Below the pieces are notes generated by a model. The model was not told where the DNA came from. It saw nothing but the letters and a program-made list of their open reading frames with translations, and made no database searches. Positions 3,383-36,173 of a stretch of DNA of 37,966 bases are shown here, piece by piece. How positions within the stretch are numbered: the first letter of the stretch is position 1; every line of letters begins with the position of its first letter. The DNA comes from Nitrososphaerota archaeon (GTDB lineage: Archaea; Thermoproteota; Nitrososphaeria; Nitrososphaerales; CADDZS01): assembly GCA_027886795.1 (NCBI GenBank), contig JAPCJU010000001.1:1-37966 (forward strand), written 5' to 3'. A program made the translations under genes and the position numbers.

Positions 3383-4447
3383 ATGATTCGCGCCAATGAA
3401 TTGACCAAGAAGTTTCGTCTAAAAGGCGAAATCGATATCGTTGCCTTAAACTCGGTTTCGATTCAGGTTCGAGATGGTGAAGTGTTCGGCCTTCTAGGTC
3501 CAAATGGCGCGGGAAAGACCACATTCATGAGGCTAATTTCCTGCTTATTATCCCCCACTTCAGGAACTTTGGAAGTTGCAGGATTTGATTGTACGCGGAA
3601 TCCGGTGGAAATCCGAAACAAAATCGGCCTGCTCTGCGAGGAACCAGGTCTGTATGAGAGACAAACTGTGTTCAACAATCTTTCACTATATGGAGAACTC
3701 TACGGGATGGAGAGAGACGAAATTGAAGACCGAATCGATGAGCTTTCAGCATTACTTGATTTCAAGAACCTGCTAGAAATGAAATCGGGAAGATTATCTA
3801 AGGGTCAGAGGCAAAGGGTGTCCCTTGCGCGAGCACTTCTTCATGAGCCTGAGATTCTTTTATTGGATGAGCCCACTGCCAACCTCGATCCCGTCTCGGC
3901 AAATGCCGTGAGGGAAGCAATAAGGCAGATTCAGCGGCAATCAGACAATAATAGAATAGTGATCGTTTGCAGTCATAATTTGGATGAAGTTGAAAAATTA
4001 TGCAAGAGGGTTGCCATCATAGACAATGGTCACATAGTCGAGACAGGTTCCATTGATAACTTGGAACATGAGCTCTGGAAATCCGAGAGCTTTGAGATCG
4101 TTCTAAAAGGTGGAACGCCTTCCTCCGATTTTCTTGAATATCTTGCAAAGCTTGATGTTGTGGGCGACGTTCAGATAATTCATAACGCACGAGAAGAACC
4201 GATTGGATCGACTGACTCTCATTTAGTTCTTAAGATTGGATTGCGTAGCTCCCCCAGATCAATAGATCGCAACAGTGAGGACATTATTGCCGATGTGGTA
4301 AAATTAGTCGCTGCACAAAGCAATTTGAAAATCGTTTCGGTATCATCAGAAAAACACTCATTAGAAGACGTATACTTGAAACTCATGAGGGACAAGATGG
4401 ACGATGTGAAAGAATTTCAAGAAATGAGTGCACCTGGTCAAGACTAG
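3383..4447 (+). CDS. ABC transporter ATP-binding protein (ABC-2/DrrA-McbF type, with C-terminal extension)
   Basis: Walker A GPNGAGKTT, ABC signature LSKGQRQR, Walker B LLLDEPT, H-loop region VCSHN. Confidence 0.9.
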   Translation: MIRANELTKKFRLKGEIDIVALNSVSIQVRDGEVFGLLGPNGAGKTTFMRLISCLLSPTSGTLEVAGFDCTRNPVEIRNKIGLLCEEPGLYERQTVFNNLSLYGELYGMERDEIEDRIDELSALLDFKNLLEMKSGRLSKGQRQRVSLARALLHEPEILLLDEPTANLDPVSANAVREAIRQIQRQSDNNRIVIVCSHNLDEVEKLCKRVAIIDNGHIVETGSIDNLEHELWKSESFEIVLKGGTPSSDFLEYLAKLDVVGDVQIIHNAREEPIGSTDSHLVLKIGLRSSPRSIDRNSEDIIADVVKLVAAQSNLKIVSVSSEKHSLEDVYLKLMRDKMDDVKEFQEMSAPGQD

Positions 4448-4465
4448 GACTTGATTTGATTAGCT

Positions 4466-5200
4466 TTGTTGCCACGTTTTCCTAATCCGAGAAAAGCCCA
4501 TTCGGCAATTATCATAATTCTGAAGAATGAGTTTCGAGAAATAAGAAGTTCCAAACAGCTTATGCTTCCTATCTTGATTGGGCCATTTCTTATTCTAGCT
4601 TTAGGATTTTTTTATGTAACTTTTGGCTCAGCATTGCAATTTGAAGAAACGTCGACACTAATTTTGCCCTTTCTCGCAGTTCTTTTTCCAATAGGAATAG
4701 CATCGGGAATCGCTATGGATAGTTTCGTGGGGGAGAGGACTAGGCGAACAATTGAACCAATTCTCGCGACTCCAATAACTGAAAGAGCTTTGTTCGTTGC
4801 TAAAGTCCTTGCATCGTTTTTGCCAGCTATGATTGTCTCTTACTGCACGCTGATTGCGTATTCACTTTTGATTGCTACTGCTAAAGCATCAAATTTAACT
4901 GTCGTATTTTCCCCGGCAAGTCTGAGCATAATCTTTTGGCAAGCACCTGCAATAGCTCTTGTTGGCACATGTATCATGATAATTGCCTCGGCGAAAATAA
5001 GAGACCCCCGTGCTGCAATGCAAATCGGAAATGTAATAATGCTGGGAGTATTGTTTGGATTCTTTTATATATTCTCAAGTTACATGAGTGAATTCGAAAT
5101 CACAATTCTTGTTAATTCATTGTTGACCGTTTCGGCTTTGGTACTTTTGTTAATGGGAAACAAATCATTCACCCGCGAAGAAATTCTAAGTAGAATCTAA
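4466..5200 (+). CDS. ABC-2 family permease
   Basis: Starts 18 nt after the ATPase stop on the same strand. About 6 hydrophobic helices. No ATPase motifs. TTG start in the track. Confidence 0.7.
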   Translation: MLPRFPNPRKAHSAIIIILKNEFREIRSSKQLMLPILIGPFLILALGFFYVTFGSALQFEETSTLILPFLAVLFPIGIASGIAMDSFVGERTRRTIEPILATPITERALFVAKVLASFLPAMIVSYCTLIAYSLLIATAKASNLTVVFSPASLSIIFWQAPAIALVGTCIMIIASAKIRDPRAAMQIGNVIMLGVLFGFFYIFSSYMSEFEITILVNSLLTVSALVLLLMGNKSFTREEILSRI

Positions 5201-5480
5201 AAAAATTACAAGCCTCTATTAGCACGGCCTGTTTGATTTTTCGACTCGGATTTTTCAAAGACGGTACTAACGAGTTTTCCCCTCAGTTTCCCTAAGAGAG
5301 AATCTCTTTGGCACACTAATTTGCTCATTCCGCACGCCCGATGCTCTTCGTTGACTTGTCCATTTGCGCGTTCGTATAAAGATCTTGAAATTCCAATGAA
5401 ATTTTTTGAGATTTAACTTCAAAATGTTTCGGAATTGACAGTATCTAGATCAAGTCATTAGTTAAATAGGTTAACGCTAT

Positions 5481-6395
5481 TTGCACCTTGTAGGAATTGC
5501 GGGCGATTTTATGCCCCGGGGAGAAATTAGGGGGTATCTTGAACACGTCGATATACGGAAAATTAGGGCAACTCCTAGGTCGCTTAGAAATGATCTCGGG
5601 CTACTGGATGGTTTGATGCAGTCGATATTTGACAACGGTGTCTTGCAACCAATCATTGTTCGTCCAATTGATGGGGACTTCGAAATAGTAGCTGGGAGCA
5701 GAAGACTCGAAGCTTGCCGACATCTAAAATGGAATACTATCCCGTGTCATATCATGGAGTTGACTGACAAAGAGGCATACGAATTATCTCTCGCAGAGAA
5801 TGTTCAAAGAAGAACACTGGATGTGGCCGAAGAATCTTCAGCTTTTGCAAGATACGTCGATGAGTTCGGGTACGGAGGTGTTTCAGAACTTGCAAGAAGA
5901 ATCGGCAAGAGTGAACAATTCGTATCGCAACGTATTCGCCTTTTAGATTTGCCGAGGGAACTAATAGAGAAACTTACCACACGCGAGGTAACTTTGTCTC
6001 AACTTAGAGAAATGGTCGGGCTCCCCGAGGAGGACAGACAGAACATTCTAAACGTAGTGATCAGTGAAAGAATGTCTTCACGACAAGTCCATTCAATTGT
6101 CAAACATATCAAGAAAAATCAAGGTGAAAATGAAACGATGCCGGGCAAAGCTTCTGGGCTTGCCGTACTGCAAAATCTCCAAATTCAAAAGAGCGAACGA
6201 GCTCTGGGAAAAAGCGCTCTAGCGCTTCAAATTTGCCTGATGAGAATTGACGAAGTAATTGATCATTTTATGGATGACGATTTGTTAATAAGAGAAACAC
6301 TGATGCTGCAAAGAACAGTAATTCATCAACAAATTGACTCTACCCTCAGGCTCAAGAAGAAAATTTCGCGGCTTTCCTACAATTTCTTAATGTAA
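5481..6395 (+). CDS. ParB/Srx-fold N-terminal domain protein with HTH (ParB-like nuclease/regulator)
   Basis: LQPIIVRPIDGDFEIVAGSRRLEACRHL (ParB-box GxRR) followed by the HTH-like GGVSELARRIGKSEQFVSQRIRLL. ATG at 5511 is a likelier start than the track's TTG 5481. Confidence 0.75.
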   Translation: MHLVGIAGDFMPRGEIRGYLEHVDIRKIRATPRSLRNDLGLLDGLMQSIFDNGVLQPIIVRPIDGDFEIVAGSRRLEACRHLKWNTIPCHIMELTDKEAYELSLAENVQRRTLDVAEESSAFARYVDEFGYGGVSELARRIGKSEQFVSQRIRLLDLPRELIEKLTTREVTLSQLREMVGLPEEDRQNILNVVISERMSSRQVHSIVKHIKKNQGENETMPGKASGLAVLQNLQIQKSERALGKSALALQICLMRIDEVIDHFMDDDLLIRETLMLQRTVIHQQIDSTLRLKKKISRLSYNFLM

Positions 6396-6458
6396 GAGAA
6401 TACATTAGGACCTCTCGATGTTTTGATGATCATTAACGTCTAATCTGGCGTAACTTTC

Positions 6459-7811
6459 TTGGATTTGTTAGATTTCCTCGGGCGAATTACTAGTGAAAAG
6501 GATACGAAAATGGACTTTGTTGAATCAAAGCTCTTCGAAGCATCCACAAGCAATGTATCGATTTCACAAGATTCGACAAATGTGGAAAGTACTGTTAGCA
6601 AAGGGATTTTCATTAGAGTACTGCACAATAGTTTCGAAGGATTTGCCTCAACCGAGAACCTTTCGGAAATGGGAGTTCTACGTGCTCTTGAATTTGCCAC
6701 GAAAATGGTAGAAGCAGGCTATGTTTTCTCCCCACAGAAACTTGAATCAAGCGTTGCGAAGGGAGCTCACGCTTGCAATGCTGTAAACAATGAAATGCCT
6801 AGCGACATAGATCATGTTGCTAAAGTTCGCGAATTGCGGAGAGAATACAATAACGTATGTGGTCATTTCTCAGAGGGGGAAAATATCAAAATGTATTTCA
6901 GCCAGGTCAATCAAAACCAGTATTACTCCAATAGCCTTGGAAAGCAGTATCATATTTCTCAGACATTGATAGGAACATATTATGACGTAACTCGCAATTC
7001 TTTGAGATTATTTGAAGGAAGGAATAGAGTTGTTAGTGGTGAGATGTCCAGTGAATCTTTTTCTGAAAACGTAGGGTCATTTCTAGCGAGAAGATTTCGC
7101 GAACTCTCTATTTCGACTTCCAGTCCGAGTGGGCAAATGTCTGTAATTACTTCACCCGAAGTGTCGGGAACCTTGGCACACGAGTTGGGTCATATTTTCG
7201 AAGCTGACTCGGGAAAAGTCGAGTACTTGCGTAACCATCTTGATCGCCAGATCTGTAGTCCTGAAATAAGCTTGATAGATGAAGGGAACAATTCGAATTT
7301 CGGGGGATACTGCCCAGTGGATGACGAGGGAGTGGATTGCAAGAAAGCCCTATTAATTGATAGCGGTTATTTGAGCGATTTTCTGACAAACCGATGTACA
7401 GCGGAGCAATTCGGATTGCCTTGCACAGGAAACGCTCGGACAGATTGCCATTTGCGAAAACCAGTGGTTCGAATGAGGCAGACTTACTTCGAAGGGGGAT
7501 CGGACTGTTTGGAGGACATGATCTCAGAGTGTCAAAGCGGTATCTTAGTCGAAAAGGCCGCTGGAGGGCAAAACGGTCCAGATGGTAGATTAGTCCTTCG
7601 ATGCATGTTGGGTAGAACCATCGAAAGTGGTAAGCTCGGCAAGCCTGTTCAGAACTTTAATCTGAGTGGAAATCCTCTAGAATTGCTTTCAGCGATCCAA
7701 GGATTAACAAAGAATAAAGTTCTATTTAATGATAAGTGTGGAAAGGATCAAATCATAACAATAGCTCACGGCGGCCCGTTTGTCAAATTAAGAGCAGAAG
7801 TCCAAGGTTGA
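6459..7811 (+). CDS. tldD: TldD-like metalloprotease (TldD/PmbA family), pair 1
   Basis: Zincin-type H-E-L-G-H at 7179-7193 (GTLAHELGHIFEAD). The C-terminal GGQNGPDG ... CGKDQIITIAHGGPFVKL is typical of the family. Alternative ATG start at 6510. Confidence 0.85.
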   Translation: MDLLDFLGRITSEKDTKMDFVESKLFEASTSNVSISQDSTNVESTVSKGIFIRVLHNSFEGFASTENLSEMGVLRALEFATKMVEAGYVFSPQKLESSVAKGAHACNAVNNEMPSDIDHVAKVRELRREYNNVCGHFSEGENIKMYFSQVNQNQYYSNSLGKQYHISQTLIGTYYDVTRNSLRLFEGRNRVVSGEMSSESFSENVGSFLARRFRELSISTSSPSGQMSVITSPEVSGTLAHELGHIFEADSGKVEYLRNHLDRQICSPEISLIDEGNNSNFGGYCPVDDEGVDCKKALLIDSGYLSDFLTNRCTAEQFGLPCTGNARTDCHLRKPVVRMRQTYFEGGSDCLEDMISECQSGILVEKAAGGQNGPDGRLVLRCMLGRTIESGKLGKPVQNFNLSGNPLELLSAIQGLTKNKVLFNDKCGKDQIITIAHGGPFVKLRAEVQG

Positions 7812-9115
7812 CAAGCCAAAGCGAAAGCCTTGCAAACTGGTCTTCTGAGTTTAGCGTAAATGAAATTGAAATCTTCAAACAGGACTCGAAAACGATTTTC
7901 CTCGAAACGGACGAAAAGAATCACCTGGACTCTCAATACTGTGAAAGAAGCGGACAGATGATTAGATGCGTCGTTTCAAAAAGGCTTGGATCTTTTTCGT
8001 ACAACAAAGGTTCTGATATCAATTCCGACGAAAAAGCAATAAGATGTGCTCGATCCCTTGCAAGCTTTTCACCTGTATTGCCCCACTGGAAAGGCTTCCC
8101 AGGAAGCTCAAAAACCAGAAAAATTGAAGGAATCTGTGACGATGAATTCGCACGTGTGGATTTAGATTACGTACGTAGACTTTTAGATGAAGTCCGCCTC
8201 ATGCTCTCATCATTCGCGAGGAAGTACGCCATAAAACTCGGGGTCGGAACCAATCAAATTCACCTAACGAATTCGTCAGGACTGAGTTGGGAGGAGGTCT
8301 TTACGCATGCAAGAGTTAATTATACAGTTTTCGATCCCGATACAAACGAAACGATTATTGCTGATATGATCTGTGCAACGAACAAGAGAGACTTTGAGTT
8401 TCAGCTTAAACTCAGAGAGGAAAATAATCTTATTCATGCATCTCAGAAAAGATTCCATCCCGATAATTTCACGGGAGAACTGATTATTCCGCCTTCAATT
8501 GGCACGGCCTTCATCTTGTCGCCTTTAATTCAATCTCTAACTATGAATGAACGTGATCGTCCTTATCTAAAGATTCCAGAATTTATGACTGCCGTAGATG
8601 ATGGAAGTATCGATTGCCTGTCAGGTTCTTCCACGCTAGATATGGAAGGGGTACCTCACAAGAGAAATGAAATTATCAGTCATGGTGATATAGGACCGAG
8701 TTTGAAAAACTTGGAAACATGTTCCGTTGAGAACACGGATCCAACAGGAAACGCAAACAGGTCGTACTCGTTCCGACCTATAGCTTGTCCCACTAATCTC
8801 TTCATACAAGGATCACACAAGAAAAGTTCGAATCTTATTGCCGAAACGCGTCGAGGAGTGTATTTAGATCAGATTGATCTTGTGTCACAACCTATGAGTG
8901 ATATGGTAACCAGCAGAAATGCGTTCTTGATAGAACACGGGAATATTAGGGGAAAAGTGCCGAAGGTTACAGTTCAAATTGACAGGTTTGATCTTTCCAA
9001 ATTGTGCGAATTGGGTGGTGAAACTAGACCGATAAATCTCTCCGGTGACATTTTGCCTTCTCAGACATTGATAGCGCCAACTGTGAAATTCGATGATCTG
9101 TATATTCGAATGTGA
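7808..9115 (+). CDS. pmbA: PmbA/TldE-like protein, pair 1
   Basis: Family-like C-terminal half (GNANRSYSFRP ... RRGVYLDQIDLV ... FLIEHGNIRGKV). No HExxH. I place the start at TTG 7808, overlapping the TldD stop (ttga 7808-7811), rather than the track's 7736. Confidence 0.75.
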   Translation: MTSQSESLANWSSEFSVNEIEIFKQDSKTIFLETDEKNHLDSQYCERSGQMIRCVVSKRLGSFSYNKGSDINSDEKAIRCARSLASFSPVLPHWKGFPGSSKTRKIEGICDDEFARVDLDYVRRLLDEVRLMLSSFARKYAIKLGVGTNQIHLTNSSGLSWEEVFTHARVNYTVFDPDTNETIIADMICATNKRDFEFQLKLREENNLIHASQKRFHPDNFTGELIIPPSIGTAFILSPLIQSLTMNERDRPYLKIPEFMTAVDDGSIDCLSGSSTLDMEGVPHKRNEIISHGDIGPSLKNLETCSVENTDPTGNANRSYSFRPIACPTNLFIQGSHKKSSNLIAETRRGVYLDQIDLVSQPMSDMVTSRNAFLIEHGNIRGKVPKVTVQIDRFDLSKLCELGGETRPINLSGDILPSQTLIAPTVKFDDLYIRM

Positions 9116-9192
9116 TCAGGTCTTGCCCTAATAGTCCACGGCTTGTTGAGGTTACTCAAATGTTATCTAAGAGCACTTCTCTCTAACAAGTC

Positions 9193-9351
9193 ATGAGAAT
9201 CGCACAATCTCAGATGTGTAACATAAACTGTGTTGCTGCAAACTGTGGACCACCCTGTCTAATCGAATGCATAGTATTCCCGCCAGGCTGTATTGCCTGT
9301 CTCTTAATCGCATGTCCTTTTGCGGCTCTACTGTGCTGCCTCTTTGGTTAA
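9193..9351 (+). CDS. unannotated small Cys-rich hydrophobic peptide (52 aa)
   Basis: ATG 9193 to TAA 9349-9351 reads MRIAQSQMCNINCVAANCGPPCLIECIVFPPGCIACLLIACPFAALLCCLFG. It has 10 Cys, is on the same strand as its neighbours, and ends 6 nt before the next ATG. An in-frame stop at 9184-9186 fixes the maximal ORF. Confidence 0.45.
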   Translation: MRIAQSQMCNINCVAANCGPPCLIECIVFPPGCIACLLIACPFAALLCCLFG

Positions 9352-9357
9352 ACAAAA

Positions 9358-10644
9358 ATGCCAGAGACCGATAACCTTGCCGAAAAGACGATGGAAGTCT
9401 TCGAAGAAACTACAGGTAGCACACACGGATATACCAGCGTAACCGGCTACGCTGGTCTCCCAATTTTTTTTAGTTACATTCTAATACCAAATTCTGGTCA
9501 TTATTTGGCATCACATCCTGAAAGCGGACCAAACACTGGTTGCAAGATTGTTACGGCGTCAGACAAAGACGTTAGGATAAGATCGTTTCCTTTAGAGCTT
9601 ACAGAAAATCAAGATCATTTAGAAGAACAGGGGTTTCTGCAAAGTGAGCTAACAGATCTTCTGGAAATAATCACTTCGTTCAGTTTTCAGAAAGAGATTT
9701 CTCAAATAAAGGTCGATTCACGGTTTGATCTGGATGTTAGGTATTCCATTTCATCTAATTCCGACGGAAGACTCTCTCGAATCCCGCGATATTTCCTCAG
9801 GACAGAGATCTTCGCCGAAGACAAATTTAGCAAAAAGGGCGCAACAAGGAGTGTAAACATGGGTTGCTCCTTCGATTTCTCAATTCTCAAGTCTGGATTG
9901 CAAGCGCGCATGATCGATGCATCCGATGATGCTTCCGCTATGCTCAAAACAATCAAGCCTAATCTCGGATCCTGGCCAACGATATTCGATAATGAGCTAT
10001 CTGGTTTCTTCCTTCATTATGGTTTATCGCATTACGCCGAATCATATCCTTCAAGACCTCTAGGTACAACCACTGAACAGGAAAAGCCCGCTAGTGTCGA
10101 GGTCTGTGATGAGCCGCGCTTGCCTCTTTCATATGGATACTATGATTTCGATGATGAATCAAACGATTCGGAAAATCAGGTTCTGTACAATAATGAACAA
10201 TTCAAACAGGTTTTCACAGGCCAGCCCGAAATCTGGGGGACGGATATTCCATCGAACGGACATGCGAGATGTTCAAAATATTGGTTAGATACGCATTTGA
10301 GATCTTCCAATACGGTTGTGAAAGCCGGGGAAGCAACTATTGAAGAGATGCTGGTAGGTCCTGGTGTTTATGCGAAAGGATTGAGACAACTTACCATGGA
10401 TGAAAGGGGCGACTTCACTCTTTACCCTGAGGCTGCATTTATTGTACGCAATGGCGCCGTTCAGCAAGGCTTGGGAGCCTTCTCTTTGCAAGGAAACATA
10501 TTTGATTCACTAAGCGATGTCAAGCTCCTAAGTTGCGATTCGAAAATATTCTCTGCGTATTGTCCGTTTAACTGCAATGACATGGATTCCTGCCCCTCAA
10601 GTGTTTCATCACCAGCTTTATTGTTCCTGGAGCAGAAGGCATGA
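9358..10644 (+). CDS. TldD/PmbA-family protein, pair 2 (TldD-like position, metal site altered)
   Basis: ELSGFFLHYGLSHYAES lines up with EVSGTLAHELGHIFEAD of pair 1. H-Y-G-L-S-H at 10015-10032 lacks the Glu. Family-like C-terminus (FIVRNGAVQQGLGAFSLQGNIFD). Confidence 0.7.
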   Translation: MPETDNLAEKTMEVFEETTGSTHGYTSVTGYAGLPIFFSYILIPNSGHYLASHPESGPNTGCKIVTASDKDVRIRSFPLELTENQDHLEEQGFLQSELTDLLEIITSFSFQKEISQIKVDSRFDLDVRYSISSNSDGRLSRIPRYFLRTEIFAEDKFSKKGATRSVNMGCSFDFSILKSGLQARMIDASDDASAMLKTIKPNLGSWPTIFDNELSGFFLHYGLSHYAESYPSRPLGTTTEQEKPASVEVCDEPRLPLSYGYYDFDDESNDSENQVLYNNEQFKQVFTGQPEIWGTDIPSNGHARCSKYWLDTHLRSSNTVVKAGEATIEEMLVGPGVYAKGLRQLTMDERGDFTLYPEAAFIVRNGAVQQGLGAFSLQGNIFDSLSDVKLLSCDSKIFSAYCPFNCNDMDSCPSSVSSPALLFLEQKA

Positions 10645-12065
10645 GCGCAACGACAATCAACTCGGATGATCTGATTCGAGATATTGCAAACATAAGTTGT
10701 GGTCAATATGAGCTATTTTTTTCAGAGACACGAATAAGGGAGTTTTCCTTCGATAAGGAAAATCAGATCCCATATAGGTCGAAAGAAATTGTTGCATCTG
10801 GAACTTCTATTTCTGTTTTAGAGGATGGAGCAGGAGGGTACGCCTCGATCGGAGGTAGCCAGATTCGTTGCAACGTGTCGGGGCTTGTCAGAATGGCTCT
10901 TTCCAGCGCACACATCAGCAAGAACCATACGTCATCTCAAATTCAATACAACATGAGATCGACTGACTATGAGATGTTCCCTACAAGAACGGGAAAATTT
11001 ACAGATCATGAAAGCTTTTCAGAAGATCTGGAAAACACCGATCTGGAATCCGCCTCTAGCTTGATCAAAAACATTCTAAGTTTAAGAAAACAAGAGACTC
11101 CGAAAATATTCGGAAAGCTTCAAATCATAAGTGATGAGAGAAGGATTGTCAATTCGGGGGGCGGAGATTTTTCAAGATCTTCTAACCACTTCGTTATTCG
11201 GGTAAGCCAGAAGCTACCCAGTTCAGAATTTGAGAACGCTTACTCGATGGGCAGAGAACTCGACTTTGATAGAATTTCGAAAATTTTTGATACGTTTGAA
11301 AACTCCAAAAATTCAGAGGGATTTCGTAATGCGCCGAGCGGAGTTATGGACATAGTGTTGAGTCAGGCCGCTTTTTCGGCGATAATATTGGAGAGCTTTT
11401 TTAGGTATATGCGAATTATGCTAAGAGAAGCTGGAACAGTTACGGACCCTAGGGGTGAGCTAGTTTCAGATCCAGCTCTCAGTATAACCGTTGATCCGCT
11501 ATTGCTTGCGGGACTTTGCTCACGAAAATGGGATGATCATGGATGCGATTGTATCCCAAAGCAAGTAGTGTCGCGAGGAATTCTAAAGGATTTCATATCA
11601 GATCATGTTACTTCTTCATATAGAGGCATCGCCTGCAGCGGGAATGGGTTCCGATCGAATTGTCTTCCAAAGACAATGATGTCAAATATTGACCTCCCTT
11701 TTCTATCAGCTGCACTTGTCAGTCCGACTAATATTATCGTTTCATCGGAGAACGTGTCTGAAAACGTGGTACAGAATGTCCAGGAAGGAGTTTTCATATC
11801 ATCCGTTAGCGAGCCATTTGCGAGATTCGGGAAAACCGTGTTTCGGTGCTATGGTTCACGAAGAATAAAACAAGGCTCCCTTGAAGAAAGAGTGAATCAA
11901 ACATTCTTGATTTTTCCCGACATGCTCGCACCACTTCAGAGAATAACTATGGCTACGAAATCCACATCAGGTTTTCAGGTAATTTGCCCTGAAGTCCTAA
12001 TGGAAAAAGTCGAAATAAGATCGGACATCCAACCTGAACCCTGTTCAATGCCTTGCACAATTTAG
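10641..12065 (+). CDS. PmbA/TldE-like protein, pair 2
   Basis: ATGA start/stop overlap with the upstream gene (10641-10644). Contains GNGFRSNCLPK ... SPTNIIVSS ... EGVFISSV ... RRIKQGSLEERV, a PmbA-like C-terminal half. No HExxH. Confidence 0.7.
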   Translation: MSATTINSDDLIRDIANISCGQYELFFSETRIREFSFDKENQIPYRSKEIVASGTSISVLEDGAGGYASIGGSQIRCNVSGLVRMALSSAHISKNHTSSQIQYNMRSTDYEMFPTRTGKFTDHESFSEDLENTDLESASSLIKNILSLRKQETPKIFGKLQIISDERRIVNSGGGDFSRSSNHFVIRVSQKLPSSEFENAYSMGRELDFDRISKIFDTFENSKNSEGFRNAPSGVMDIVLSQAAFSAIILESFFRYMRIMLREAGTVTDPRGELVSDPALSITVDPLLLAGLCSRKWDDHGCDCIPKQVVSRGILKDFISDHVTSSYRGIACSGNGFRSNCLPKTMMSNIDLPFLSAALVSPTNIIVSSENVSENVVQNVQEGVFISSVSEPFARFGKTVFRCYGSRRIKQGSLEERVNQTFLIFPDMLAPLQRITMATKSTSGFQVICPEVLMEKVEIRSDIQPEPCSMPCTI

Positions 12066-12120: not shown

Positions 12121-13524
12121 TCATCCTGTTGAGAGGATTGCTTTTGTCAACCTCCGCTTCTTCTCGGTCGCAAGATGATGTATCAATTCGCAGTAGGTAG
12201 GATGCGGAAAAGGAAAATGCAAAAGGTCTCGAACCTTGATCTTCGACTTTATTGCAAAAGCCATGGCTGTCAAGACTTCTGATGCGTCAGGACAGACAAT
12301 GTGAACTCCCAAGATGGTATCTTCAACAGGATCTAAGACAAATCTCGCTAGTCCTAGAACATTCTCTCTTATCTGAGCCTTTGCGCAAGAAGAGATGGGT
12401 ATGTCAACTATTTCAAAAGGCCGTCCGCTTTGCTTAGCCGTATGAGTCGTGAGACCCACTGCAGCAAATTCTGGATAAGTTAGAATCTTTTTTGGAATCA
12501 ACTCGTAATCCATGGCGGTTTCTTCCCCCATACAATTTAGCGATGCCACTATTCCTTGTTCTGAAGCTATATTGGCCGACCAGCTTTTCCCTGTGACCTC
12601 ACCTGCGGCATAGATATTGTCCAAACTCGTCTGCATTTTTCGATTTGTCTGAATCAGTCCATCTTCAATTTTGACTCCAATTTTCGGCAAGTCCAAATTA
12701 GAGTAATTTGGCTTTCTGGAACTGGTGATTATCTTGTCGAAAGAGAACAACCTATGTTGATCAAACCGATCGAGTAATTCGACCTGTTTCGATTCTTTGT
12801 CCCTTGATATATCGAGAATTTGCGAATCGTTGATGAATTTGATACCTCTAGACTGCAGAAATAAAATCAGATAGTCAATTATATCTCCCTCCTCATTAGA
12901 TAGAATCGAATTCTCAAGCTTGATCACTGTGACATCGATTCCTAGTTCGTTAAGAGCGAACGCCAGTTCAACTTCTGAGAAGCCACATTCGATTAACAAA
13001 ACTGACCGAGGCAATTTCTCCCATTCCAACAAAACACCAAAGTTGTCCACCAAATTGTTGTTCGAAAATCGATCGTTGTTAGGAACTGACCCGGTGCATA
13101 TGATAGCATGACGGAATCGGATGGTTCTCCAACCGTCATTCCCTTCGACAGAAACTTCATTCCTGGAAAAAAATTGGGCTTCTCCATAAACAATATCGAT
13201 CTTTTCGTCCGCAAGACTCTTTCGAACCATTTCTGATAATGTCGGAACAAGTGTCGCACTAACAAAATGTGTGAGCTTTAGGAACTCCTCCTCTTTTTTT
13301 ATAGAAGGCGTTAAATTCGGAAATGATTTGCGCATTTCGACTAACTGCCTCGAAAAGAGGCATAATTTGGTCAGGGGGTAACAACCAGTGTTCAAGCATT
13401 GTCCTCCCAAGCGGCTCTTTTCGATGAGGACAATTCGAGCGCCGTATGCGGACGCCGTCGAAGCTGCAGACGTACCAGCAGGACCTCCTCCAAGAATAGC
13501 GAGATCGTAGATCAAGGTTTCCAC
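12121..13524 (-). CDS. pyridine nucleotide-disulfide oxidoreductase, dihydrolipoamide-dehydrogenase-like
   Basis: FAD fold LGGGPAGTSAA, redox-active C-x4-C (GGQCLNTGCYP), second dinucleotide fold, C-terminal dimerisation motif FPHPTYCE. Confidence 0.85.
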   Translation of the reverse strand: METLIYDLAILGGGPAGTSAASTASAYGARIVLIEKSRLGGQCLNTGCYPLTKLCLFSRQLVEMRKSFPNLTPSIKKEEEFLKLTHFVSATLVPTLSEMVRKSLADEKIDIVYGEAQFFSRNEVSVEGNDGWRTIRFRHAIICTGSVPNNDRFSNNNLVDNFGVLLEWEKLPRSVLLIECGFSEVELAFALNELGIDVTVIKLENSILSNEEGDIIDYLILFLQSRGIKFINDSQILDISRDKESKQVELLDRFDQHRLFSFDKIITSSRKPNYSNLDLPKIGVKIEDGLIQTNRKMQTSLDNIYAAGEVTGKSWSANIASEQGIVASLNCMGEETAMDYELIPKKILTYPEFAAVGLTTHTAKQSGRPFEIVDIPISSCAKAQIRENVLGLARFVLDPVEDTILGVHIVCPDASEVLTAMAFAIKSKIKVRDLLHFPFPHPTYCELIHHLATEKKRRLTKAILSTG

Positions 13525-13550
13525 AAATTAAGTTGAGCAAGAAAGGATTA

Positions 13551-14009
13551 TTAGCCGCAGCAGGTTGAATTCAGGGCGGCATTCTCTTCACTCAGTCTAT
13601 TAATCAATAACAATATCTTTTCTTCGCACTCTGAAGGACGCATCAAGTGATTGATTGATTCGTCATCAGGAATCTTAACCCTAGCGAACCAAGCGTTGCT
13701 ACTTTCAGGCATTATTGCTGCTACGGATTCCTTGTATCCGCTTAATTCGATGAGTTCTCCATTAATGGGAGAATACAAAAGGTCTACTTTTCTTGCTGAT
13801 TGCAACAATCCAAATGGCTTTTGTATTTCTATGCGAAATGGAGGAAAATTAATTAGGATTCGAGTGTCCTCTCCGACTAGAGAGCGCCAAAAGGCAGTAA
13901 GACCCAATACAATAGTATCATCGCTGTCAAGCCTTGCCCACGTCTGCAACCTGTCGTCGTAGAGATTTTTCTCGTTGAATGGAAATCCCCCGATCATCAC
14001 TTCTGACAT
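13551..14009 (-). CDS. glycine-cleavage H-like (lipoyl/biotinyl-fold) protein
   Basis: VLGLTAFWRSLVGE ... LLQSARKVDLLYSPINGELIE ... AWFARVKI follows the GcvH pattern (vGiT.fA...lG / ESvKa.sdiysPvsGe / gWl.k). Confidence 0.65.
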   Translation of the reverse strand: MSEVMIGGFPFNEKNLYDDRLQTWARLDSDDTIVLGLTAFWRSLVGEDTRILINFPPFRIEIQKPFGLLQSARKVDLLYSPINGELIELSGYKESVAAIMPESSNAWFARVKIPDDESINHLMRPSECEEKILLLINRLSEENAALNSTCCG

Positions 14010-17476: not shown

Positions 17477-20014
17477 GTGGGCTCATTGTCTAGGGCTAAG
17501 ATTGAAGTTCAGCAAATATTCGTCGACAGAGAAGAGCCTCTTTCCTCTCTTTCCGAGGTATTCGATTCCATTCGAAATTTAGGAAAGGATCGTATTGTCA
17601 CGGTTTATGGAGAGCCTGGAGTCGGAAAGACGACTCTGATTAACAATTTCCTAAAGGAACTTGAATCAAAACAAGAGCTCGTAATCCTGAGAACTGTTGG
17701 TAGAGTATTCGCAAGTAGCCCTTACTCAGCTCTGTCTGAAATGATCTCCTCTCTGAAGCGATCAAAACATACGATCGAACAGAGCAAACAAATCGCCACA
17801 ATAATTCTGAATCTTGCTAAGCTTGTTCCGGCATTTGAACCCGCTATTTCATTAGTCTCAGATGTGGCATCCCGTGTATTTAGTCTGACCCAAGCGGACA
17901 AGGAAATAATCGGCAATTCAATGTACGTCAATAATTTGTTTGTTTCCCTTTTCGAAAAATTATCGTCGAAGAATACTGTCGTAGCTTTCTTTGATGATAT
18001 CCAGTGGTTTGACGGCTCCTCTCTTGAATCGCTCTGTTTTCTTTTGGAGAAGGTTTCGCGTATACAGTGCATGATTGTTCTGAGCATCAGGAAGGGACAT
18101 CACTCATCCGAAAGAGAAGAGGCTAATACAGAACTTCTTAATGCTGTTCTTTCCAGAATCGATGAGAACAATCGACTTTCCGTTAATCTAGAGCCCTTTA
18201 CTCTATACTCATCTACAGAGCTCACCACTATTCTTGCAAGAGACAAATTGACTAAAGAAGAGATACGATCTTTGGCTTCGCGGACGGGCGGAAACCCTTA
18301 CTTCATAAATTGCGCAATCAAGGGACTTCAAACTATTCATGAATCCGACAATTCCTTTGCTAGTGATAGGAGAGCGCTGCTTGCTCCAAAAAGCGTCTCC
18401 GACCCGATTCAGACTTTGCTCCTGCACATTAAGCGCGAAGATTTGTCGATGCGTGTTCTTCTTGACTATGCGGCAATTCTGGGAGACAGGTTCAAGTCAA
18501 AAGATCTCTCCGAACTTATGAATGAGGATCAATTGAAACTGATACACCATCTTGAGGAACTTGAAACGGTCTATGGCATCATGAAGAACAATAAGCGGGA
18601 CGGAAGCTATGAATTCGATCATTCGATAACCAGAGAAGTGATTCTTGATTCTTTGAAAGACGCGGCACGAGGAATCCACGAGAAGGCCGCGAAAATGTAT
18701 GAAGAAAGAGGTTCGAATCCCGAACTTGTCGCCGTTCATTATGATTCTGCAGACAGACCGAAATTGGCTCTCAAGTTCTATGTCGAAGCTGCGAAGAATG
18801 CCACGACTAATTTTTCATTCGCAGATTCGACAAACTATTGGAAGAGGGGGCTTGAGTTAGCAAATTCCCAACCAGGATTTACCGTGGCGGATCGAACTTT
18901 ACTTTCTTTACAACTTGGATCAAGTCAGTTCTCCACCGGTCAGTTTGAAGAATCATACGCCATTTCTCATTCAATCGTACAAGAGATTGAGAGTGGAATT
19001 GAAATTTCCAAGCAATTAGAAGCAGACACCAGGTTGTTGCTTGGGAAGAGTTGTCGATACATCGGTACAAAGAGAGCAGCATCCGAAGGAATCCCAAATT
19101 TACTAATGGCTTGTCAAATACTTGAAGAATTGGACGAAAAAGAGCGACTGGGCGCTTCTTATTCTACTCTGTCCACAGCTCTGGATCATTTTGCGTTTCA
19201 CGAAGAAGCTCTTGAGTATTTTGGAAGAGCTCAGAAAGTCTTCAATGAGGTCAACGACAGAGTAGGACTGGCGACCCTTGGACGAAAGTCAGGAATGTTC
19301 TATGACTCAAGGAGAACCATAGGCTTCCTGGATTCGGCCATTCAGACATTCAAACAGTTAGGGGCGACCATTGAAGTGGCGAGATGTCTTAACAATCAAG
19401 GAGCAGAAAGATTCTACATCGGGGACTTTGGTTCGTCAAAGAAGAGTCTGCTTGAGTCAATAAAACTGTACCGAGAAATCGATTCGTATGAAATTGATAT
19501 CCCTCTCAACAACTTGGGCTTAGTTTACATCCAGCTTGACGATTTTCCAAGTGCAAGGTCATTCTTGACTGAAGCATTTGAAAGATCAAGCGAGGTTTTC
19601 AATCGAATCTGCAGCTCGATCAATATCTCTGTCCTGGATAAGAAAGAGAACAAACTCGAGGATTCAGTTCAGCGCATGCAGCAACTTGCGTCCCTCGTCG
19701 AGGAATCAGGAGAGCCATTGGTGCAAGACTATTTTGGTTTCAATATGGCATCCATCCTTCTTTCAAAAGAACTAGCAAAGACCGCACTTGAATGGCTTGA
19801 GAAGTATCAGTTGAATGTTTGGAAGGATGACAACGAGCTTGCGCTTGCAAAAAGATTGACGCTTAAGGCAAGGATCCTTAAGGAACTAGGAACGCAAAAG
19901 GCTGAAGTTGGAGAGATTGTTGAGCAAGCGCGGGAGATTTTCAAAACCATGAGACCTCAAAAATGGTTCTACCTAATCGACTATTACCCCTGCGACCTTC
20001 ACGTACTGGATTGA
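17477..20014 (+). CDS. STAND-type P-loop NTPase (AAA_16-like) with C-terminal TPR array
   Basis: Walker A YGEPGVGKTT near the N-terminus and Walker B-like VAFFDDIQWFD. The C-terminal ~400 aa are repetitive helical TPR-like (A..Y...A......). GTG start. Confidence 0.8.
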   Translation: MGSLSRAKIEVQQIFVDREEPLSSLSEVFDSIRNLGKDRIVTVYGEPGVGKTTLINNFLKELESKQELVILRTVGRVFASSPYSALSEMISSLKRSKHTIEQSKQIATIILNLAKLVPAFEPAISLVSDVASRVFSLTQADKEIIGNSMYVNNLFVSLFEKLSSKNTVVAFFDDIQWFDGSSLESLCFLLEKVSRIQCMIVLSIRKGHHSSEREEANTELLNAVLSRIDENNRLSVNLEPFTLYSSTELTTILARDKLTKEEIRSLASRTGGNPYFINCAIKGLQTIHESDNSFASDRRALLAPKSVSDPIQTLLLHIKREDLSMRVLLDYAAILGDRFKSKDLSELMNEDQLKLIHHLEELETVYGIMKNNKRDGSYEFDHSITREVILDSLKDAARGIHEKAAKMYEERGSNPELVAVHYDSADRPKLALKFYVEAAKNATTNFSFADSTNYWKRGLELANSQPGFTVADRTLLSLQLGSSQFSTGQFEESYAISHSIVQEIESGIEISKQLEADTRLLLGKSCRYIGTKRAASEGIPNLLMACQILEELDEKERLGASYSTLSTALDHFAFHEEALEYFGRAQKVFNEVNDRVGLATLGRKSGMFYDSRRTIGFLDSAIQTFKQLGATIEVARCLNNQGAERFYIGDFGSSKKSLLESIKLYREIDSYEIDIPLNNLGLVYIQLDDFPSARSFLTEAFERSSEVFNRICSSINISVLDKKENKLEDSVQRMQQLASLVEESGEPLVQDYFGFNMASILLSKELAKTALEWLEKYQLNVWKDDNELALAKRLTLKARILKELGTQKAEVGEIVEQAREIFKTMRPQKWFYLIDYYPCDLHVLD

Positions 20015-22769: not shown

Positions 22770-25031
22770 ATGAAAAAACTGTTGGTTATCGCTGGTCCCG
22801 AAGACGATGCAATAGCACGTAAGATTCATCGAAACATTTCTCTTTCAACTCTTGGACTCACGATTGATCGAATTCAACTAGGGCATGATGAAAGTCTTTC
22901 CAGCACACTTTTGCTTGATAAAGATTCGTCGGTACTTCTTCCAATTATTTCGCTTGATACTCTTGCATATAGATGGGCCACTGTGGATTTGCTGACATTT
23001 GTCTCAAACATTGACTATGAGGTATTTCCGCTAATTTACACCGACAAAGATTGGGAGACACTTCAAGAGAAAATTCCTGAAGAATTCAGATTGGCAATAA
23101 ACTCCTGTCAATATATTTTGTTTCGTAATGATCGTTTTGAAGATTCGATAACCGAGCTTCTTCGGATTCTTTCTCCGCAGATGGATTCCGAAGCCGTTTA
23201 TTCGGAAGCTCAATCCAGCGATAACCCGTTTAGACGTGTCAGAATGGAGCATTATGAAAGTCTCCAGCTGCTAGCTCAGAACTTTGCAGAACCAGAAAGG
23301 GCCCGTTACGACAAGATAATGGAGGTTAAACCCACTATCCTTCAGGGAGGACGCGGTTGCGGCAAATCAATGATCCTCAAGTCTATGCAAGCAAGCGTCG
23401 CGGTATATCGTCGTGCTACCGCGAAATCTTTCAAAGATTTGAAGATCGGTTATTTCGGCATCTATTGTAGAATGACTCAGGGCTCTTTTTCAACTCAAGA
23501 GGGGAATATCGAAAAGCATATTGACCAAGATGCGGCGACTCGTTTATTTTCGACAGAATTGATCTTACAATTAGCTCAATCACTAATCGAAGAAGTTCGG
23601 GTATGCTCCACGCGAAACATTCTTGAGATAACCCGAACACAAGAGACTAAGATTGCAGTTTCAGTCGCGAATATTCTGTCACCAGGGGACAGCGCGGCCG
23701 ATTTTCAAACTCTAGAACAGTTAATTCAGACGTTCCTCAGAGCAATAAACGACTATCTCGGAAGCAAGATATTGGGCGATGCCCCAGTTTACGAAGGAAT
23801 ACATCTTTCCAAAGAACAATTAAGACAAATCTGTAAGGCGATCCTTGAAAATATTCCTGAGATTTCTGATTGTACTGTGTATTTTCTTTTGGACGAGTAC
23901 GAGAATTTACTACCGTTTCAAAAAATCGTTCTCAACACTCTAATCAAATGGTCCGCGAGCAGAATTTTCACCATAAAGATTGCAGCAAAGCACACGGGCT
24001 TCAGAGTAACTAAGACAACCGAAGGCCAAGAAGTGGAAGAGCCTGCGGATTACACCTTGATTGACCTTGATTATGATGTAGGAAGAAAAGATCAACGGGC
24101 AGCGTATATGCGCTTGCTCAAGCAAGTCTGCGAGAAAGTCCTGAAGCATGAAGGCATAAGCGTGCCCATCGACAAGCTCTTAGTAAGGGGATCAATAGCG
24201 CCTGGTATTGCAGTCAAGGAAATTGAACAGGAGGTATCTGTTATGGCTCAAGAAATTCAGGGGAAAAAATGGATCGATATCCCGGAAAAACAGCGCGATG
24301 AATATCTTACCAAATTCAGAATGGCCGCAGCGTATCGAATTCTGGGTCGGCGACAAAGACAATTTTCGGGGTTTTATGAATTTGCACTTCTATCTTCAGG
24401 AATAATAAGAACTTTCTTAGAATTATGCGGAATGTCCTATTATTTTGCGAGAGCCCGTCGTGAGAGCACTCAAGATGCAAAGGATTCACCTATCTCCCAA
24501 GTTCATCAGTCTCAAGCGGTATTTGCGCTGTCATCCTATTACTTAGCAACACTCCGAAAAAATATTTCTGATTATGGATTTGACATCCAGCAACTCGTTA
24601 TCGATTTTGGTGATATATTCCGCCACAGGCTGTTGTATCACCCCAGTCAGCCGGAAGCATCGCGGATATCAATAACCGATCCCCAAAATTTTACTTTGGC
24701 TAACATGAAAATAGCTGATAATGTAATCAATTGTGCGCTTATGCACAGCGTAATGTTTTCTCCAAGCAGGGGGCTACCGGGAAATCGTCCTTCAAACTCC
24801 AAAGATATACAGCCTACTGATTTTATCCTGAATAGAATATTTGCTCCCGTTCTCAGATATTCTCCTAGGGCTCGATGGAGGATTAACGTGAAAGTTTCTG
24901 ATATTGAGGGGCTTCTTGATAAGAAACAAAGGGGGAAAATCAAATCTGATCTTATACAAAATCTTTCAGGAGAACGTTATAGGGAGAGATTTCAGAGATC
25001 CTTTGATGACTTGCAGACAAAGCTCCAATAG
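22770..25031 (+). CDS. TIR-like domain fused to an ORC/Cdc6- or STAND-like P-loop NTPase
   Basis: Residues 1-135 follow the TIR pattern: KLLVIAGPEDD, then SSVLLPIISLDTLAYRWATVDLL, then VFPLIY. Walker A GGRGCGKS lies at 23346-23369, Walker B-like VYFLLDEYEN follows, and the C-terminal half is helical. Confidence 0.65.
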   Translation: MKKLLVIAGPEDDAIARKIHRNISLSTLGLTIDRIQLGHDESLSSTLLLDKDSSVLLPIISLDTLAYRWATVDLLTFVSNIDYEVFPLIYTDKDWETLQEKIPEEFRLAINSCQYILFRNDRFEDSITELLRILSPQMDSEAVYSEAQSSDNPFRRVRMEHYESLQLLAQNFAEPERARYDKIMEVKPTILQGGRGCGKSMILKSMQASVAVYRRATAKSFKDLKIGYFGIYCRMTQGSFSTQEGNIEKHIDQDAATRLFSTELILQLAQSLIEEVRVCSTRNILEITRTQETKIAVSVANILSPGDSAADFQTLEQLIQTFLRAINDYLGSKILGDAPVYEGIHLSKEQLRQICKAILENIPEISDCTVYFLLDEYENLLPFQKIVLNTLIKWSASRIFTIKIAAKHTGFRVTKTTEGQEVEEPADYTLIDLDYDVGRKDQRAAYMRLLKQVCEKVLKHEGISVPIDKLLVRGSIAPGIAVKEIEQEVSVMAQEIQGKKWIDIPEKQRDEYLTKFRMAAAYRILGRRQRQFSGFYEFALLSSGIIRTFLELCGMSYYFARARRESTQDAKDSPISQVHQSQAVFALSSYYLATLRKNISDYGFDIQQLVIDFGDIFRHRLLYHPSQPEASRISITDPQNFTLANMKIADNVINCALMHSVMFSPSRGLPGNRPSNSKDIQPTDFILNRIFAPVLRYSPRARWRINVKVSDIEGLLDKKQRGKIKSDLIQNLSGERYRERFQRSFDDLQTKLQ

Positions 25032-32641: not shown

Positions 32642-34048
32642 TCAAGCAAACTTCCCTTCCTCAATTCTTTTCAGCTTCTCCAGGAAGGCGGGATCTTTCA
32701 GCCAGGTGAGCTCTTTCAGGAACGCATAATCTTTCTGCTGCTCTCTCATTTCCGCCAGATCCTTATCGACTTGAGTCTGGTTCTTGAGCTTCGACTCAAG
32801 CTCTTGTATTTTCTTCTCCATCGAGTGCGAGACCCTTTCCTCATTGCAAATCAGGGCCTCGACCTTCAAGTACTGATCGCGAAAGTGTTCCGGTGAGGTC
32901 CAGGGTGTCTTGTCGTAACCCTCATCGTCGATGTTGTGCCCTATGAAGAAATCCGCGACGGGCCCATCGACCCCAGCTACCCTCGCGCTCGTCTTGAATG
33001 TGTCCCTGAACTCGTGCGCGTGTATACGGTAAATCCTCGTCCCAGGCACATGTTCCTGGACGCCCGAGCGAAAAGAAGATTCCCTGACGGTCTTGTTGAC
33101 GTTCTTTTCCGTAACCGGAGTCCTAATGTTCGTGATGAAAATCGGATCAGAAATCAGCCTTCCATTTACGGTCCTCACCTTAATGTCGGAGAGCATGATC
33201 TGTTTTCTGACCGGTATCCAGTGTTGCAGGCATTTGAGGGCCTTAGCCGGAAGGAAGTTGAAGTAGTCGTACTGCGTCTTGGAGCGGGTCATGTCTATCC
33301 TTATGGGAGCTCTGGAAAGATCCCAGAACTCCGGGTCCGAGCCGCCGAGCTGCTTTAGGATCTGCGGCCAAGCGTAGTAGTTGAAGCACTCTACAAAAGT
33401 ACTCTCGTCCAGGCCGAGCGTCGCGCATATCGCCATGATCGCCTTGTCTCTTATCGGGGTCCTCCCGTCCTCGATGATCGTCCAGTACTCCGCCGGTCTT
33501 ACGAAGCTCGAAGCCCTTGCGGTGCCCGAGTTGTCTATCATCTCGCGGCTGAAGACGACCTTCTCTGAGGGGAGCTCGCAGCGGTTCTTCGCGTATAGAG
33601 CTCTAACGGCGACGACTATCGCGTCCTTGTAGCCCCTGGACCCCTTGAACGAATTCACGTAGCTCGTCAGGAGGTCGAGATGGCGGAAGCGTCTCTCCTC
33701 CTGGTCGCCGCCCTTTCTCTTCACATCCTCGATGAGCGCAGTCGCGTCGGAAAAGTAGCCGTTCTCTCGGAGCCAGCAGATGTAATTCCAGTTCCTTCTC
33801 AGGCGGTGGCCCCGCGTTTTCTTGGAGGCGGTCTTTGAGATCATTACCTGGACGTATTGGTTTTTCTCGAATTCGTCCAACCCTTCCGTCCGGTGAAAAG
33901 TCTCCCTTCTGTAATCGAGGGCTCCGGTGAATTTTCTGATCTCGAATAGGTAGCTACCGATGTAAGAGGGCTTGCGCCCTAAAGCTTCTGCCACCTCGTT
34001 TGTAGTGAGCTCCTTCCTTCCGCTGTACCCGCTTTTCAGTACGTCCAT
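32642..34048 (-). CDS. tyrosine recombinase/integrase
   Basis: Catalytic region RIHAHEFRDTFKTSARVAGVDGPVADFFIGHNIDDEGYDK follows H-x-x-R ... H ... Y. Lies 158 nt from the 3' end of a co-oriented tRNA gene. Visibly higher G+C than its surroundings. Confidence 0.85.
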   Translation of the reverse strand: MDVLKSGYSGRKELTTNEVAEALGRKPSYIGSYLFEIRKFTGALDYRRETFHRTEGLDEFEKNQYVQVMISKTASKKTRGHRLRRNWNYICWLRENGYFSDATALIEDVKRKGGDQEERRFRHLDLLTSYVNSFKGSRGYKDAIVVAVRALYAKNRCELPSEKVVFSREMIDNSGTARASSFVRPAEYWTIIEDGRTPIRDKAIMAICATLGLDESTFVECFNYYAWPQILKQLGGSDPEFWDLSRAPIRIDMTRSKTQYDYFNFLPAKALKCLQHWIPVRKQIMLSDIKVRTVNGRLISDPIFITNIRTPVTEKNVNKTVRESSFRSGVQEHVPGTRIYRIHAHEFRDTFKTSARVAGVDGPVADFFIGHNIDDEGYDKTPWTSPEHFRDQYLKVEALICNEERVSHSMEKKIQELESKLKNQTQVDKDLAEMREQQKDYAFLKELTWLKDPAFLEKLKRIEEGKFA

Positions 34049-35836: not shown

Positions 35837-36173
35837 CCGACTTTCGATTTATTTTTCCTTTGTGTGGCACGAATCCGCCGCTGAATTTTGAAGGAATATG
35901 CATCAGCTCGTGGATGACAACCCTCTCTTTTTCAATTTGATCGAGTCGGTCGAACTCTTCTGAAATCACCTCGATGATATAGTGCGGCTTCAATCCCAGC
36001 GCGTCAAACCAAATTCTCCCCATCCCGTGGATTCTAGCCTGGACTCGCCTCGACCTGCTCCCGGTGCTCCTGTAAAAATGCAGTCTGTTTATGTCAATGT
36101 AATCCAAAGTAAGCGCCCTTACGACGAGGGCCGCCAGCTGTTCGACGTCAGGGGCTTTTTCGTAGGAAATCAA
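35769..36173 (-). CDS. small predicted zinc metallopeptidase (HExxH)
   Basis: VVIHELMHIP with a downstream H (FVPH). About 134 aa, resembling the small archaeal SprT/WLM-like predicted metallopeptidases. Confidence 0.55.
   Translation of the reverse strand: MISYEKAPDVEQLAALVVRALTLDYIDINRLHFYRSTGSRSRRVQARIHGMGRIWFDALGLKPHYIIEVISEEFDRLDQIEKERVVIHELMHIPSKFSGGFVPHKGKINRKSVEKMHKEYSERKNSLDAFVNSQ

Follow-up and report, generated by a model that had tools for sequence, protein, structure and literature searches.

The DNA analysed here, referred to as the window, is one whole contig of 37,966 bp (JAPCJU010000001.1, assembly GCA_027886795.1) from a Nitrososphaerota archaeon, and the subject of the analysis is a 52-codon open reading frame (ORF), hereafter the small ORF, located between two pairs of genes of the TldD/PmbA family. 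All the genes from 3383 to 12065 are encoded on the + strand, in an 8.7 kb co-directional array around which the following features were located:

3383-4447, + strand: ABC ATPase (Pfam)
4466-5200, + strand: ABC-2 permease (Pfam)
5481-6395, + strand: ParB/Noc-like gene (ParB_N and HTH_ParB), separating the ABC-2 transporter from the TldD cluster
6459-7811, + strand: TldD-like metalloprotease with an intact HExxxH motif (HELGH) and CGK (Pfam, NCBIfam and alignment)
7808-9115, + strand: PmbA/TldE-like partner without the metal-site motif, its TTG start overlapping the TldD stop (TTGA)
9116-9192, + strand: spacer of 77 nt located 5' of the small ORF, with neither a Shine-Dalgarno-like motif nor an oligo-T terminator
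9193-9351, + strand: the small ORF, 52 codons, stop included in the coordinates, from ATG at 9193 to TAA at 9349-9351 (sequence reading)
9191-9355, - strand: antisense frame open for 54 codons from a TTG, ordinary and hydrophilic in composition, not in the protein collection
9352-9357, + strand: spacer of 6 nt, ACAAAA, from the TAA of the small ORF to the ATG of the next gene
9358-10644, + strand: divergent TldD-like protein of 428 aa, with H-Y-G-L-S-H at the motif site
10641-12065, + strand: divergent PmbA/TldE-like protein without HExxxH, its start overlapping the preceding stop (ATGA)

Translation of positions 9193-9351 (+) gives a peptide of 52 residues, MRIAQSQMCNINCVAANCGPPCLIECIVFPPGCIACLLIACPFAALLCCLFG, containing 10 Cys (7 encoded by TGT and 3 by TGC) and only two charged residues, R2 and E25, with a grand average of hydropathy (GRAVY) of 1.39. 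The first Cys is residue 9, leaving 8 residues ahead of it. From there to residue 26, five Cys are found in the spacing C-x3-C-x4-C-x3-C-x3-C amid Asn, Ala, Gly-Pro-Pro, and one Glu, a pattern contained within the N-terminal 32 residues. The other part of the peptide, residues 33-51 (CIACLLIACPFAALLCCLF), is strongly hydrophobic, with a mean hydropathy of 2.7 and the remaining 5 Cys. No paralogue of this peptide was found within the window. A first-pass annotation of this DNA, made from the letters alone, had described the small ORF as an unannotated Cys-rich frame, and its coordinates, translation, 10 Cys, and two charged residues were all exact on re-reading. The placement that it gave was likewise correct: the gap between the PmbA-like stop (9115) and the TldD-like ATG (9358) measures 242 nt, 159 of them occupied by the small ORF, which lies on the same strand as the flanking genes, its end 6 nt short of the next ATG. 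Missed at that stage was that the small ORF and the gene starting at 9358 share one reading frame (TAA ACA AAA ATG), a coincidence expected by chance in 1 of 3 cases. The gap also contains short direct repeats, for example one matching the 3' end of the PmbA-like gene before it at 13 of 15 positions; the copies are in different frames, and the repeats were regarded as fortuitous.

The composition of the small ORF was compared with that of the other frames in the window and of randomized gaps. It is the Cys-richest of the 238 window ORFs of at least 40 aa (19%, versus 12% for the runner-up and 1.4% in long ORFs), and among the 194 small ORFs of the window, it ranks first for low charge and joint first for hydropathy, the second also having a value of 1.39. 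In random gaps of 242 nt generated by a window-trained Markov model, a + strand ORF of at least 50 codons with an ATG start appeared in 5.9% of cases, and one that also ended within 15 nt of the gap end appeared in 1.5%; none of the 1185 ORFs of at least 50 codons produced by this model encoded 8 or more Cys. Dinucleotide-preserving shuffles of the gap itself, which keep its TG-richness, contained a + strand ORF of at least 50 codons with an ATG start in 6.7% of cases, and such an ORF with at least 10 Cys in 2 of 20,000. Considering only the shuffled ORFs, the probability of reaching a GRAVY of at least 1.39 was 0.001, that of having two or fewer charged residues was 0.013, and that of containing 10 or more Cys was 0.006, and the three properties were jointly reproduced in none of 2039. 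A bare ORF of this length is unremarkable, but its composition is remarkable. The ORF and its position can be read directly in the DNA, and the frame-specific composition is non-random, confirming the observation of the first-pass annotation that the Cys excess (rank 1 of 238, and 2 of 20,000 shuffles) goes beyond chance.

The four proteins encoded at both sides of the gap were analysed in a similar way, and all of them matched PF19289 (PmbA_TldD_3rd, the C-terminal domain) in Pfam. In the product of 6459-7811, HELGH and CGK align with HEAVGH and CGK of E. coli TldD (5nj5_A); its best score among the NCBIfam models, that of the archaeal TldD, was 205 bits, far below the cut-off of 635. Its partner starts at the TTG at 7808, not at 7736, as translation from 7808 gives exactly the deposited protein, and neighbouring genes overlap by 4 nt both there and at 10641. 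The product of 9358-10644 retains both His of the motif, with the catalytic Glu replaced by Tyr, and the Cys residues of a CPFNC sequence are near the position of the third ligand, so that this protein may be a pseudo-protease or have an altered chemistry. Its N-terminus aligns with the N-termini of its homologues, and its shortness is due to internal gaps. The arrangement that defines TldD/TldE in MEROPS family M103 (a TldD with HExxxH and a Cys ligand, and a partner without them) was found in the first pair only. The first-pass annotation had described these four proteins as TldD/PmbA-family members acting as proteases; the family assignment held for the four of them and the activity did not, with HExxxH kept in one of the four. 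Judged by its motifs, the cluster consists of one TldD/TldE pair predicted to be active and, after it, a Glu-less TldD'/TldE' pair, and is not a set of four proteases, because HExxxH is intact only in the product of 6459-7811 and is replaced by HYGLSH in that of 9358-10644.

The explanation that we favour, though tentatively, is that the small ORF is a real gene, restricted to its lineage, which encodes a membrane micro-protein rich in Cys and is translated immediately before the second pair. Pointing in this direction are its location on the same strand as its neighbours, its ATG start, the tight packing against the next gene, the frame-specific composition, the gene-like character of its non-Cys codons (see below), and its hydrophobic C-terminus. 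The product would be a nearly uncharged protein of 52 residues in which a short Cys-studded head (C-x3-C-x4-C-x3-C-x3-C) precedes a hydrophobic, Cys-lined C-terminal helix, these two parts possibly packing into a hairpin of helices; AlphaFold2, run on the single sequence, predicted one helix at residues 5-28, another at 30-51, and a turn at FPPG (mean predicted local distance difference test score, pLDDT, of 73). The small ORF would be co-transcribed with the co-directional TldD/PmbA cluster, and a promoter and terminator scan found no convincing terminator at either side of it, in agreement with the absence of an oligo-T tract pointed out in the first-pass annotation. A weak TATA-like sequence, TTATCTAA, was read by eye at 9163-9170, around 27 nt 5' of the ATG of the small ORF, a position that would suit a leaderless archaeal start, although the match is poor. 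In addition, the second pair could have its translation coupled to that of the small ORF through termination-reinitiation, as the stop of the latter lies 6 nt before the ATG at 9358 and the gene starting there has no ribosome-binding motif. As to its role, our guess is that the peptide could be a partner in the membrane, handling thiols or metals, for the TldD'/TldE' pair that lacks the Glu.

Several results weigh against such a gene, beginning with the nucleotide composition of the gap. TGY triplets are over-represented in each of the three forward frames (10, 2, and 5, a total of 17), the bias toward the frame of the small ORF having a P of ~0.03-0.08; this enrichment across frames, with motifs such as CTGTGTTGCTGC, implies that part of the Cys excess is a property of TG-rich nucleotides. 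The antisense frame over the gap is open as well (54 codons, 9191-9355). Neither GGAGG nor GGTGA was found upstream of 9193, a lack shared by the gene at 9358 and by many genes of the contig, and the depositor's annotation called the flanking genes and not the small ORF. The AlphaFold2 helices are weak evidence, since hydrophobic single sequences often come out helical, and the first of them includes Gly-Pro-Pro and several Asn/Gln, unfavourable for a membrane helix. Moreover, a 3-periodic second-order Markov coding model, trained on 21 long ORFs of the window, gave the small ORF a score of -3.0, below 99% of real 52-codon windows (5.1 +/- 3.2, compared with -0.7 +/- 3.6 for spurious overlapping ORFs); the membrane segments of the ABC-2 permease scored 2.5-8.4 in the same model. 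The low score is due to the Cys codons, which real genes contain less often than spurious frames do. When the Cys codons were removed, the 41 other codons gave +0.113 bits per codon, a value above 72% of real windows and attained by just 1.7% of spurious ORFs, whereas a measure based on synonymous codons only was uninformative for the small ORF. The intrinsic coding tests are, in consequence, in conflict.

The searches for relatives of the peptide point the same way. The first-pass annotation had proposed to look for it in other genomes by tblastn; scans of metagenome and viral contigs confirmed by this method, as well as tblastn on plasmids, returned no match. A word-index protein search gave no homologue in 5.8 billion clusters, a full phmmer search produced 0 matches in 1.84 billion representative proteins, and the peptide was also unmatched in Pfam (E up to 10), NCBIfam, and the PDB. 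A further scan of metagenome contigs, in which the fixed spacing of Cys 1-8 was used as a DNA pattern, was uninformative, being swamped by (TGY)n repeats; all the stretches among the matches listed were poly-Cys and none was peptide-like, and this result is not evidence of absence.

The flanking proteins are nearly as isolated. The four of them are singletons at 90% identity in a collection of 15 billion proteins, the sole other member being a fragment encoded on a Logan contig of 930 bp (L004, from SRR28023413), whose DNA is 100% identical to the window at ~10061-10978 and stops short of the small ORF. The 90% cluster of the 9358-gene product has a 174-aa fragment as its representative. At positions 1-21, this Logan contig has no alignment with the window and resembles a Nextera adapter (…AGATGTGTATAAGAGACAG), which was left untrimmed in the public assembly. 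In full-length alignment, the closest TldD relatives did not exceed 31% identity. With the 9358-gene product as query, the word-index search had no match at E <= 1e-10, and a scan of genome contigs revealed only an ordinary TldD/PmbA pair from Clostridiaceae with 24% identity; both proteins of the second pair found nothing in viral contigs, and tblastn of the TldD-like protein next to the small ORF on plasmids detected distant TldD/PmbA only. Finally, the eight loci of nearest homologues that were examined had a single TldD/PmbA pair each, save one with a lone gene, and neither a second pair nor a Cys-rich hydrophobic small ORF was present nearby in any of them. The contig appears, from these comparisons, to come from a lineage without a close relative in the collections.

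A serious competitor, and one that we regard as possible, is that the gap is an ordinary intergenic spacer, perhaps one that holds the second pair's promoter or 5' leader, in which an A-poor and TG-rich sequence left a frame open by chance and the peptide is never made. ORFs that start with ATG, run for 50 codons or more, and have the correct orientation are found in around 6% of the random or shuffled gaps, one antisense frame is free of stops, and a second forward frame contains only one. The spread of the 17 TGY triplets over the three forward frames, with its P of ~0.03-0.08 for a bias to one of them, and the periodic Markov score of -3.0, as in spurious ORFs, would be expected of such a spacer, and so would the lack of a ribosome-binding motif, of any homologue, and of a deposited gene call. 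A second long spacer, the gap of 280 nt at 5200-5481, shows that the cluster includes such intervals. However, a spacer does not account for the combination of Cys, hydropathy, and charge, found in 0 of 2039 shuffled ORFs of the same dinucleotide content, nor for the coding appearance of the non-Cys codons, nor for a stop placed 6 nt from the next start.

The first-pass annotation had proposed the peptide as a candidate precursor or substrate of the TldD/PmbA proteins around it, in a novel peptide-maturation locus. In the form in which this interpretation is considered here, the active pair would trim a dedicated precursor or substrate, the Glu-less pair would bind or hold it, and the ABC-2 transporter would export it. 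The ABC-2 exporter that the first-pass annotation placed about 4 kb upstream is present at 3383-5200 (Pfam), and the small ORF adjoins two TldD/PmbA pairs on the same strand as this transporter. Moreover, TldD/E process microcin B17, rich in Cys, Ser, and Gly, and a TldD/E-like gene occurs inside the ammosamide (pearlin) cluster (PMC10885120). The second TldD-like protein, having kept both metal-binding His and lost the Glu, would suit binding. Nonetheless, we consider this interpretation unlikely. No YcaO, SagB, radical-SAM, LanB/C/M, or similar domain was detected by Pfam in the ~40 ORFs covering the window, as the first-pass annotation had itself remarked for YcaO, radical-SAM, and lanthipeptide enzymes, and no cyclodehydratase, PEARL, or further enzyme of this kind was detected in the same ORFs. 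The protease TldD/E has a housekeeping function, is ubiquitous, and threads its substrate by the free N-terminus, for which ~15 residues are required (PMC10885120), and the peptide has only 8 before its first Cys and no leader-like region. Of the two marks of linear azole-containing peptides, an adjacent YcaO/McbBCD-type enzyme and a leader of at least ~15 residues, it shows neither. The genes for the TldD/E acting on microcin B17, klebsazolicin, and the McC analogue of Yersinia do not belong to the biosynthetic clusters and lie apart from those of the substrates; only the pearlin cluster encodes a TldD/E-like gene, the activity of which is unconfirmed (PMC10885120). Co-location with TldD/E is therefore not a known hallmark of peptides made by the ribosome and modified after translation (RiPPs). 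The peptide is also far more hydrophobic than the known substrates of TldD/E, which makes a membrane location likely for it. In addition, HExxxH is kept in only one of the four flanking proteins, the arrangement does not recur at the eight related TldD/PmbA loci, and no homologues exist in the collections searched. The transporter lies 4 kb off, past the ParB-like gene, and its link to the small ORF is only positional. No ParA was noticed close to this ParB/Noc-like gene.

A variant with a TldD/TldE system of two modules and the product of the small ORF as its dedicated client, processed by the first pair and bound, held, or altered without being cut by the second, with no YcaO, radical-SAM, or lanthipeptide chemistry involved, seems to us quite unlikely. 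If true, it would mean a peptide-maturation pathway, or a thiol- or metal-peptide pathway, in a lineage without sequenced relatives. Nothing testable supports a RiPP or substrate reading, and a modified natural product is less likely than the role of membrane partner; the alternatives already named in the first-pass annotation, a membrane micro-protein or a metal-binding peptide, fit at least as well as the RiPP reading.

We regard as very unlikely that the gap acts as a structured RNA leader or intergenic element controlling the second pair, with the ORF being incidental. The gap has a + strand fold of -64 kcal/mol (z = -2.8), a stability equalled by none of 200 shuffles, and its two folded domains enclose the start of the small ORF and its 3' half. 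However, the reverse strand is nearly as stable (z = -2.5), as expected if composition is the cause, and no Rfam match was obtained, either at the gathering score across the window or at E up to 1 over 9050-9420. Furthermore, relatives that could reveal covariation are lacking, and an RNA element would leave the amino-acid composition of the frame unexplained.

Most improbable of all is that the small ORF is a severed, read-through, or misassembled N-terminal extension of the TldD-like protein starting at 9358, for although the shared frame (TAA ACA AAA ATG) would give a fused protein of ~483 aa, a typical TldD size compared with 428 aa, a shared frame has a 1 in 3 chance, the 428-aa protein already aligns with its homologues at the N-terminus, so that the small ORF is not its severed end, and owes its shortness to internal gaps, the peptide is unlike any TldD N-terminal domain, the deposited protein begins at 9358, and recoding of TAA is not known in prokaryotes. 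Recoding of the stop as selenocysteine or pyrrolysine was ruled out, the codon being TAA.

Other regions of the contig contain features that were recorded apart from the question of the small ORF. Converging on the end of the TldD cluster, the - strand at 12121-14009 encodes a dihydrolipoyl-dehydrogenase/MerA-like flavoprotein disulfide reductase and a GcvH-like protein, with all family scores under cut-off; these thiol-redox enzymes are near the Cys-rich ORF but on the opposite strand, and only proximity was observed. A mercury-transport (MerF/MerE-like) role for the small ORF was tried and rejected, as the flavoprotein scored best as a dihydrolipoyl dehydrogenase (309 bits, versus 263 for MerA, both below cut-off), and its pairing with a GcvH-like protein on the opposite strand is further evidence to the contrary. 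Farther away, an integrase-like gene with weak Phage_integrase and helix-turn-helix matches is located at 32642-34048 (-), and the G+C content rises to 54.5% in the bin 33001-34000, which includes it, compared with ~42% elsewhere. A putative phage metallopeptidase was found at 35769-36173 and a DDE_3 transposase fragment at 2085-2552, and the four observations together suggest mobile-element content in the contig. Finally, a STAND-type AAA_16 NTPase with TPR repeats (17477-20014, +) and a 753-aa ORC-CDC6-like ATPase (22770-25031, +; PF24389, E = 2e-71) are followed by several ORFs without a family match, in a region that may be a defence or mobile island.

In its composition, the small ORF is a true outlier on a contig without relatives, and it cannot at this stage be taken as evidence of a new system of peptide maturation. 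A peptide that is really produced would represent a prokaryotic micro-protein of an unusual sort, having a Cys-lined membrane helix and encoded by the lead cistron of a TldD-like/TldE-like pair whose TldD lacks the catalytic Glu, and it would provide a handle on the role of the many non-housekeeping TldD/PmbA paralogues and on their possible dedicated peptide clients. If it is not made, the case calls for caution, in that a composition outlier from a singleton metagenomic contig should not be promoted to a gene or a biosynthetic locus without relatives or expression data.

Compared with known systems, the membrane micro-protein that we favour is close in format to the small membrane proteins of the CydX and AcrZ type, with which it shares a length of ~50 aa, a hydrophobic helix, a location between larger genes of the same strand and tight to the next one, neglect by annotation, and a narrow phylogenetic range. 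Proteins of this type are not Cys-rich, and their translation and partners have been shown experimentally; a content of 19% Cys and five Pro would be unusual among them, and the peptide described here is a prediction from sequence. Type I toxins such as Hok, Fst, and TisB are also hydrophobic peptides of ~50 aa, and the strongly folding RNA and open antisense strand of the gap are reminiscent of them. The loci of these toxins stand alone, each with a promoter of its own and an antisense RNA, and the peptides usually form one helix with a charged tail and are not rich in Cys or Pro, whereas the small ORF sits in an operon-like array in which the promoter scan found no antisense promoter. With metallothioneins, the peptide has in common a high fraction of Cys in ~50 residues. 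Metallothioneins are hydrophilic, with C-x-C and C-x-x-C clusters, in contrast to a GRAVY of 1.39, a spacing mostly of C-x3-C and C-x4-C, and no family match in the peptide.

The system closest to the interpretation of the first-pass annotation is microcin B17, whose precursor McbA is also a Cys/Gly-rich ribosomal peptide, with TldD/TldE-family proteins and an ABC-2-type exporter involved in both cases (PMC5810440, PMC10885120). However, McbA is hydrophilic, carries a leader of 26 residues, and needs the McbBCD heterocyclase, and its proteases are encoded by the housekeeping genes tldD and tldE, located on the chromosome and not in the mcb operon (PMC5810440, PMC10885120), whereas the small ORF encodes a very hydrophobic peptide with neither a leader nor a modifying enzyme, next to TldD/PmbA proteins of which one in four keeps the catalytic motif. 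The last comparison is with CYSTM, a cysteine-rich transmembrane module described in small, tail-anchored stress proteins of eukaryotes (PMC12853963). Its Cys spacing is another one, the peptide did not match the CYSTM profile (hmmscan, Pfam-A, E up to 10), and the analogy is of design only, but this design, a short protein below ~100 aa with a short variable head and a Cys-packed hydrophobic C-terminal segment, is the one found in the small ORF, with 5 Cys in residues 33-51.

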